Assembly: GCF_013315695.1 (NCBI RefSeq)
Contig: NZ_CP054353.1
From: Escherichia coli
Lineage (GTDB): Bacteria; Pseudomonadota; Gammaproteobacteria; Enterobacterales; Enterobacteriaceae
DNA: 64,000 nucleotides
Reading direction: 5' to 3' (one strand)
Shown here one piece after another: positions 39,149 through 39,166 of this stretch (the first letter of the stretch is position 1; every line of letters begins with the position of its first letter). Under the pieces are notes generated by a model. The model made no database searches and was not told the DNA's origin. It worked only from the letters and a program-made list of their open reading frames with translations. Position numbers and translations under genes: made by a program.

Positions 39149-39166
39149 TGATTTAATTGATTTAAT
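39149..39166. repeat. Tandem direct repeat of the 9-mer tgatttaat (x2) in the citC/dpiB divergent control region
   Basis: Read directly from the sequence: tgatttaat|tgatttaat, adjacent copies. Candidate response-regulator or nucleoid-protein site. Confidence 0.5.

Follow-up and report, generated by a model that had tools for sequence, protein, structure and literature searches.

The spacer between the divergent genes citC and dpiB in this stretch of Escherichia coli DNA holds a perfect head-to-tail duplication of nine base pairs, and it raises the question of whether a regulator binds there, and which one. A preliminary description, made from the letters of the window (the whole stretch of 64,000 nucleotides that was analysed), had put the repeat forward as a candidate site for DpiA, also called CitB. 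The tandem tgatttaat duplication was found exactly where that description had it: two identical copies of TGATTTAAT lie head to tail on the plus strand at 39149-39166 (window letters checked), and K-12 MG1655 carries the same 18-mer. The surroundings were also as it had given them. The citC start codon, on the minus strand, ends at 38888 and the dpiB ATG, on the plus strand, is at 39267, which leaves 378 bp between them; this spacer is 32% G+C and its core (39040-39230) is 24% G+C; and the two elements named as neighbours, ggtttaagtg (39141-39150) and ggttttaag (39098-39106), are present. Both genes are annotated in strain 2016C-3878, which matches the window at 100% over 38700-39500 by megablast, and their identity also agrees with the K-12 annotation. 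The description had further spoken of a helical or half-helical spacing, and this did not hold, since the measured pitch is 9 bp, which is neither.

No other perfect 9+9 tandem exists in the whole 64 kb, and for units of 7-20 nt the entire window has just three perfect tandems, the repeat among them. Dinucleotide shuffles gave 0.22 perfect 9+9 tandems per 64 kb; when the 378-bp spacer was shuffled, a 9+9 tandem appeared in 0.4% of cases and any tandem with a unit of 8-12 nt in 2%. Taken alone the repeat is only moderately improbable, and it is the context that makes the case compelling. The 18-mer string had no match in a full-text literature search.

The context is a larger set of units with the same orientation and phase. 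The spacer holds seven to eight of them in two arrays, all on the plus strand at a 9-bp pitch, with the consensus KKDTTTAAT, and the repeat makes up units 2 and 3 of the three-unit array B (39140-39166). In K-12 coordinates array B lies at 652,108-652,134. Table 1 lists the arrays with the conserved elements next to them. The pattern TTTAA-N4-TTTAA occurs five times in the 64-kb window, four of them in the spacer (expected 0.13). A weight matrix trained on non-Escherichia units alone has the same consensus, KKDTTTAAT, and with it the reported 18-mer scores 27 bits, more than any other tandem pair in the window. The sole tandem-unit match outside the spacer, at about 27449-27465, falls within the coding sequence of ahpC and was put down to chance. 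An inverted repeat of 15-mers that brackets the arrays (39083-39097 / 39160-39174) was dismissed because its distal arm lacks conservation.

Table 1. Arrays of 9-bp units in the citC-dpiB spacer and the conserved elements beside them, in window positions.
Feature	Sequence	Positions	Strand	Remarks
CRP-like site	TTTGA-N6-TCACA, TTTGATTTATTTCACA	39053-39068		15/16 of the TGTGA-N6-TCACA core consensus; invariant in 27 species
Array A	GTTTTTTAT TTATTTAAT GGTTTTAAG TTTTTTAAC TAATGTAAT	39080-39124	+	four to five units; conservation 0.80
Unit B1 (array B)	AGGTTTAAG	39140-39148	+	in 9-bp register with B2 and B3; conservation 0.86
Unit B2 (array B)	TGATTTAAT, first copy	39149-39157	+	conservation 0.92
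Unit B3 (array B)	TGATTTAAT, second copy	39158-39166	+	conservation 0.93; most widely conserved unit
Conserved 13-mer	AATTTGCCACGAT (AATCTGTAACGAT elsewhere)	39173-39185	+	conservation 0.88; starts 7 bp downstream of B3

A DpiB scan with one genome per species returned 80 loci, and the divergent citC-dpiB arrangement is kept in about 60 species or loci, from Escherichia to Yersinia, Providencia, Edwardsiella and Hafnia, with spacers of 324-556 bp, mostly about 320-440 bp. Spacers from 27 species were aligned; those of Yersinia and Providencia, which are far more diverged, were left out. Against a background of 61% mean column identity (the aligner's measure) and a mean majority-base fraction of 0.67 (window positions), the 18-mer reaches 0.93 and ranks 1-3 among the 360 18-mers of the spacer. 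The two strongest conserved blocks are the CRP-like site followed by array A, and array B followed by the 13-mer. Within the repeat, the TTAAT core of unit B2 (39153-39157) is invariant or nearly so in the 27 species, and Escherichia, Salmonella, Hafnia, Buttiauxella, Atlantibacter and Edwardsiella ictaluri all have the exact B3 9-mer at about 108-120 bp upstream of dpiB. Unit B1 reads GGTTTTWAT in other genera.

The layout is kept along with the letters. Two arrays are seen in Escherichia, Salmonella, Citrobacter, Hafnia, Buttiauxella, Atlantibacter, Edwardsiella, Yersinia and Providencia, and their distances from the citC ATG are alike across the clades compared. Distances from one TTTAA to another of up to 30 bp are nearly always 9, 18 or 27 in five clades, Yersinia and Providencia among them. 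Between a unit of array A and one of array B the offset, give or take multiples of 9, is 42 bp in Escherichia, Salmonella/Citrobacter and Providencia and 46 in Yersinia. The preliminary description had named a lack of conservation in orthologous regions as evidence that would count against a regulatory site; the 18-mer turned out to be the best-conserved stretch of the spacer in the 27 species, and its phasing extends to Yersinia and Providencia.

A DpiA binding region in the citC-dpiB (citA) spacer of E. coli has reportedly been described by Yamamoto et al. in 2008 and 2009 and by Scheu et al. in 2012, and is said to be recorded in EcoCyc. In the passage of PMC10610042 that cites Scheu et al. 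2012, the DpiA binding site is put 190-280 bp upstream of the citC start codon. As quoted there, the region corresponds to 39078-39168 of the window and covers both arrays; the repeat, 261-278 bp upstream of the citC ATG, lies inside it, and the citC-side edge of array A is at once the start of the quoted region and the DTR305 truncation point. PMC12405535 placed the EcoCyc DpiA sites by aligning the Citrobacter rodentium spacer to MG1655, and used a deletion primer that anneals to CATCTAACTCTTTGTGAAATAAATCAAA, so that the citC side with the CRP-like site was retained as far as the position matching window 39079, and everything from 39080 towards dpiB was removed. This truncation, in which both arrays are gone together, abolished citrate induction of a C. 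rodentium PcitC reporter in E. coli. In the same study deletion of the heterologous dpiAB had no effect, because the DpiA of the host substitutes for it (PMC12405535). The regulator itself, encoded at 40894-41571, has a receiver domain (PF00072) and an output domain of the DpiA-like HTH family HTH_64 (PF20714, E = 1.6e-48).

The proposal that the repeat is a DpiA/CitB site thus gains support from conservation and from the coordinates given second-hand in the literature, 190-280 bp upstream of citC. Footprints mapping elsewhere had been named as a reason to give it up; the quoted DpiA region encloses the repeat, and the citrate response is lost in a truncation that takes away both arrays. We put the probability at roughly 0.85 that the 18-bp repeat is the core of array B, the dpiB-proximal half of the operator for phosphorylated DpiA (DpiA~P). 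The exact 18-mer would be assigned to DpiA on comparative analysis together with those second-hand coordinates. Set beside the documented E. coli DpiA (CitB) region, the locus and the regulator are identical and no difference can be demonstrated; the two are the same object. The site is the core of the already documented DpiA operator, genuine but ordinary and essentially known. The DpiA/CitB recognition code was not found spelled out in the accessible literature, a scope that the primary footprint papers lie outside. An explicit grammar of 9-bp units and their conservation across Enterobacterales would be a modest refinement.

The least improbable alternative is that array B is bound by another protein, either a nucleoid-associated one with a preference for A+T-rich DNA, such as H-NS, Fis or IHF, or another anaerobic regulator, such as NarL or ArcA, and that DpiA occupies array A only. 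The region is 24% G+C, co-regulation of the spacer by NarL and CRP has been reported (PMC12405535), and the published truncation leaves arrays A and B unseparated. Array B, however, shares the oriented 9-bp unit of array A in a conserved register and falls within the quoted DpiA region, whose far limit, 280 bp upstream of citC as quoted, is the end of B3, and for these reasons we consider binding by another protein unlikely. Nucleoid proteins, moreover, need no phased and oriented 9-mer that is kept across genera with diverged flanks. The NarL heptamer is TACYYMT and ArcA repeats have an 11-bp spacing, and both are a misfit to the units seen here.

Copy number within E. coli bears on a second alternative. 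Searches were done with SNP-free flanks, as a common flanking SNP confounds the counts. With a 60-nt two-copy query, at least 80% was matched in 5,344 of 5,426 complete E. coli genomes. A one-copy allele, made by an exact 9-bp deletion of unit B2, was present in three of the 5,426: DETEC-E223 (NZ_CP116188.1), and 2-331 and N24 (NZ_CP110117.1 and NZ_CM165898.1). No three-copy allele was found among the 5,426. Two copies of TGATTTAAT are essentially fixed in E. coli, at more than 99.9% of genomes, and the natural one-copy alleles are ready material for probing the function of the second unit.

These deletion alleles show that slippage does happen at the repeat, and the perfect duplication could have arisen neutrally, by slippage during replication or by homogenisation of the units in DNA rich in A+T, and have no significance of its own. 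Perfect identity of the copies is indeed limited to Escherichia: in E. whittamii and in other genera TTGTTTAAT is the usual form of unit B2, two Atlantibacter species have TTATTTAAT, and in Edwardsiella and Pluralibacter the unit is more degenerate. It follows that the ancestor already had two units, which E. coli and E. albertii homogenised; judged from these genera, perfect identity is a derived Escherichia trait and not the conserved property. Slippage accounts for the identity of the copies, but not for their existence, since the two units are ancestral to many genera and hold the best-conserved bases of the spacer, and it sits poorly with two copies in more than 99.9% of genomes and none found with three. 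We consider slippage alone very improbable as an account of the repeat.

A probable place for array B in a DpiA operator leads to the promoters on either side. On the citC side, conservation suggests a -10 element TAGGAT (the reverse complement of 39026-39031; TACGAT in other genera) and a transcription start near 39019. This start would place the CRP-like site, which adjoins array A and lies outside the repeat, at -41.5; array A would then span about -61 to -105 and array B about -121 to -147. Regulation of the citC-side promoter by cAMP-CRP is stated in PMC12405535 and PMC2735749. On the dpiB side, array B ends 101 bp before the dpiB ATG and 10 bp before a -35-like TTGCCA (39176-39181), and the conserved 13-mer around that hexamer may serve the dpiB promoter as its -35 region or be bound by a further protein. 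A scan of the spacer found no consensus sigma-70 promoter on either strand, so the promoter positions are inferred from conservation alone; the missing consensus is consistent with activator dependence. Least probable of all is that the repeat is a structural element of the dpiB promoter, an UP-element-like A+T tract or intrinsic curvature: its A+T-richness, its closeness to the -35-like hexamer in E. coli and the lack of a strong consensus promoter would fit, but G and T are conserved at fixed unit positions, the phasing is 9 bp and not 10-11 bp, and like units recur in array A about 60 bp away, all of which suits an UP element badly.

Between array B and dpiB there is a further conserved block, CAACATTTTAATTACAT, at 39213-39229 (conservation 0.83). 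The heptamer ATTACAT there is reverse-complementary to ATGTAAT, which forms part of the last array A unit. Close to citC lies a 16-nt inverted repeat, GTTATCGATTTGCAAC / GTTGCAAACTGATAAC, at 38917-38932 / 38947-38962; its right arm is conserved across genera, and the repeat, folded as part of the putative citC leader RNA, gives z = -2.7. A leader hairpin is one possible role for it, a binding site of a dimeric regulator another.

As a DpiA operator, the locus would work as follows. DpiB, activated by citrate, would phosphorylate DpiA, the citrate-responsive regulator encoded just downstream. Oligomerisation driven by phosphorylation would then line DpiA~P monomers up head to tail, one every 9 bp, along array B (three units) and array A (four to five), with each KKDTTTAAT unit contacted by one HTH. 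Bound DpiA~P would activate two divergent, activator-dependent promoters, that of citCDEFXGT, with its adjacent CRP site, and that of dpiBA, by autoregulation. Against this picture, a 9-bp pitch would put successive monomers off any one face of B-DNA.

Several known systems resemble this arrangement. Binding sites of the Klebsiella pneumoniae CitB in the citS-citC control region were reportedly described by Meyer, Dimroth and Bott in 1997. There, too, the CitB targets are rich in A+T and lie between divergent citrate operons, and CRP takes part; the two-component system is a paralogous one for citrate. The gene arrangement differs in being citC/citS, with citAB downstream of citS. Klebsiella was absent from the best 120 CitC homologue matches, which reached down to 68% identity. 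Sites of the OmpR/PhoB type, such as pho boxes, are likewise head-to-tail repeats for a phosphorylated regulator upstream of activator-dependent promoters. They have a pitch of 10-11 bp, one helical turn, and are bound by a winged-helix Trans_reg_C domain, whereas the pitch here is exactly 9 bp in all clades and the output domain of DpiA is HTH_64.

A closer likeness is to MaeR of Lactobacillus casei, a member of the CitB/DcuR family, which like DpiA has a receiver and a CitB-type HTH output domain. MaeR protects three TTATT(A/T)AA direct repeats, of which the first two are 1 bp apart; mutation of the repeats reduced binding, and phosphorylation enhances it (PMC5457438). An A+T-rich 8-mer repeated directly with a 1-bp gap has a 9-bp pitch, and the repeat studied here can be read in the same way, as TGATTTAA-T-TGATTTAA-T. 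To the MaeR 8-mer, TGATTTAA matches at 7/8 positions and the array A unit TTATTTAA at 8/8. The differences are that MaeR belongs to another phylum, serves a malic enzyme regulon and has one array, in which the spacing of the third repeat varies between species. Among solved structures, the best match to DpiA was the receiver domain of entry 5lwk, which is presumably MaeR, and none held the DNA-binding domain of an HTH_64 protein; TGATTTAATTGATTTAAT offers itself as the DNA for a structure or model of HTH_64 on DNA. More tentatively, the DpiA/CitB code may be an oriented 9-bp KKDTTTAAT repeated head to tail, in two arrays with units 42 bp (four helical turns) apart, and the pitch shared with MaeR may reflect a general HTH_64 (CitB/DcuR) mode, in which a sub-helical pitch makes the protein filament wind round the DNA or overwind it; we hold this wider reading to be possible, though doubtful.

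Other loci were searched for the same unit. No comparable tandem array was found by the unit search upstream of mdh and exuT, which we take to be further CitB targets, or upstream of dcuB, a DcuR target, and the motif is accordingly validated at the citC-dpiB locus only. Near the CitA homologues of Orbaceae and Neisseriales (38-43% identical), arrays were not found. DpiA has also been reported on the tandem A+T-rich 13-mers of oriC (PMC4285127). A defined and oriented 9-bp unit provides a testable motif for finding further DpiA targets, and a minimal operator for designers of biosensors who work with PcitC. The accepted picture of the locus is unchanged.

DpiA/CitB turns on anaerobic citrate fermentation, and has also been linked to the SOS response induced by beta-lactams and to plasmid destabilisation. 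In an MG1655 variant evolved under amoxicillin the sole mutation was the loss of one base from the run of T in the first array A unit (PMC10610042), at what is window position 39081 (K-12 652,049). This deletion would move array A by one base relative to the CRP-like site, and a DpiA operator built of 9-bp units would explain why such a deletion was recovered in the amoxicillin-evolved strain.

Two rearrangements were seen at or near the locus. In the BL21(DE3) assembly NZ_CP081489.1 the match to the spacer ends about 25 bp downstream of the repeat, at the equivalent of window position 39191 or so, and there dpiB abuts a truncated tuf fragment and secE-nusG-rplKAJ; this breakpoint parts dpiBA from the DpiA arrays and citC. 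Elsewhere in the window, about 1.6 kb with ybdR and yldA is missing between uspG and rnk relative to K-12, and about 276 bp of unrelated sequence (30252-30527) replaces the ybdR-yldA stretch.
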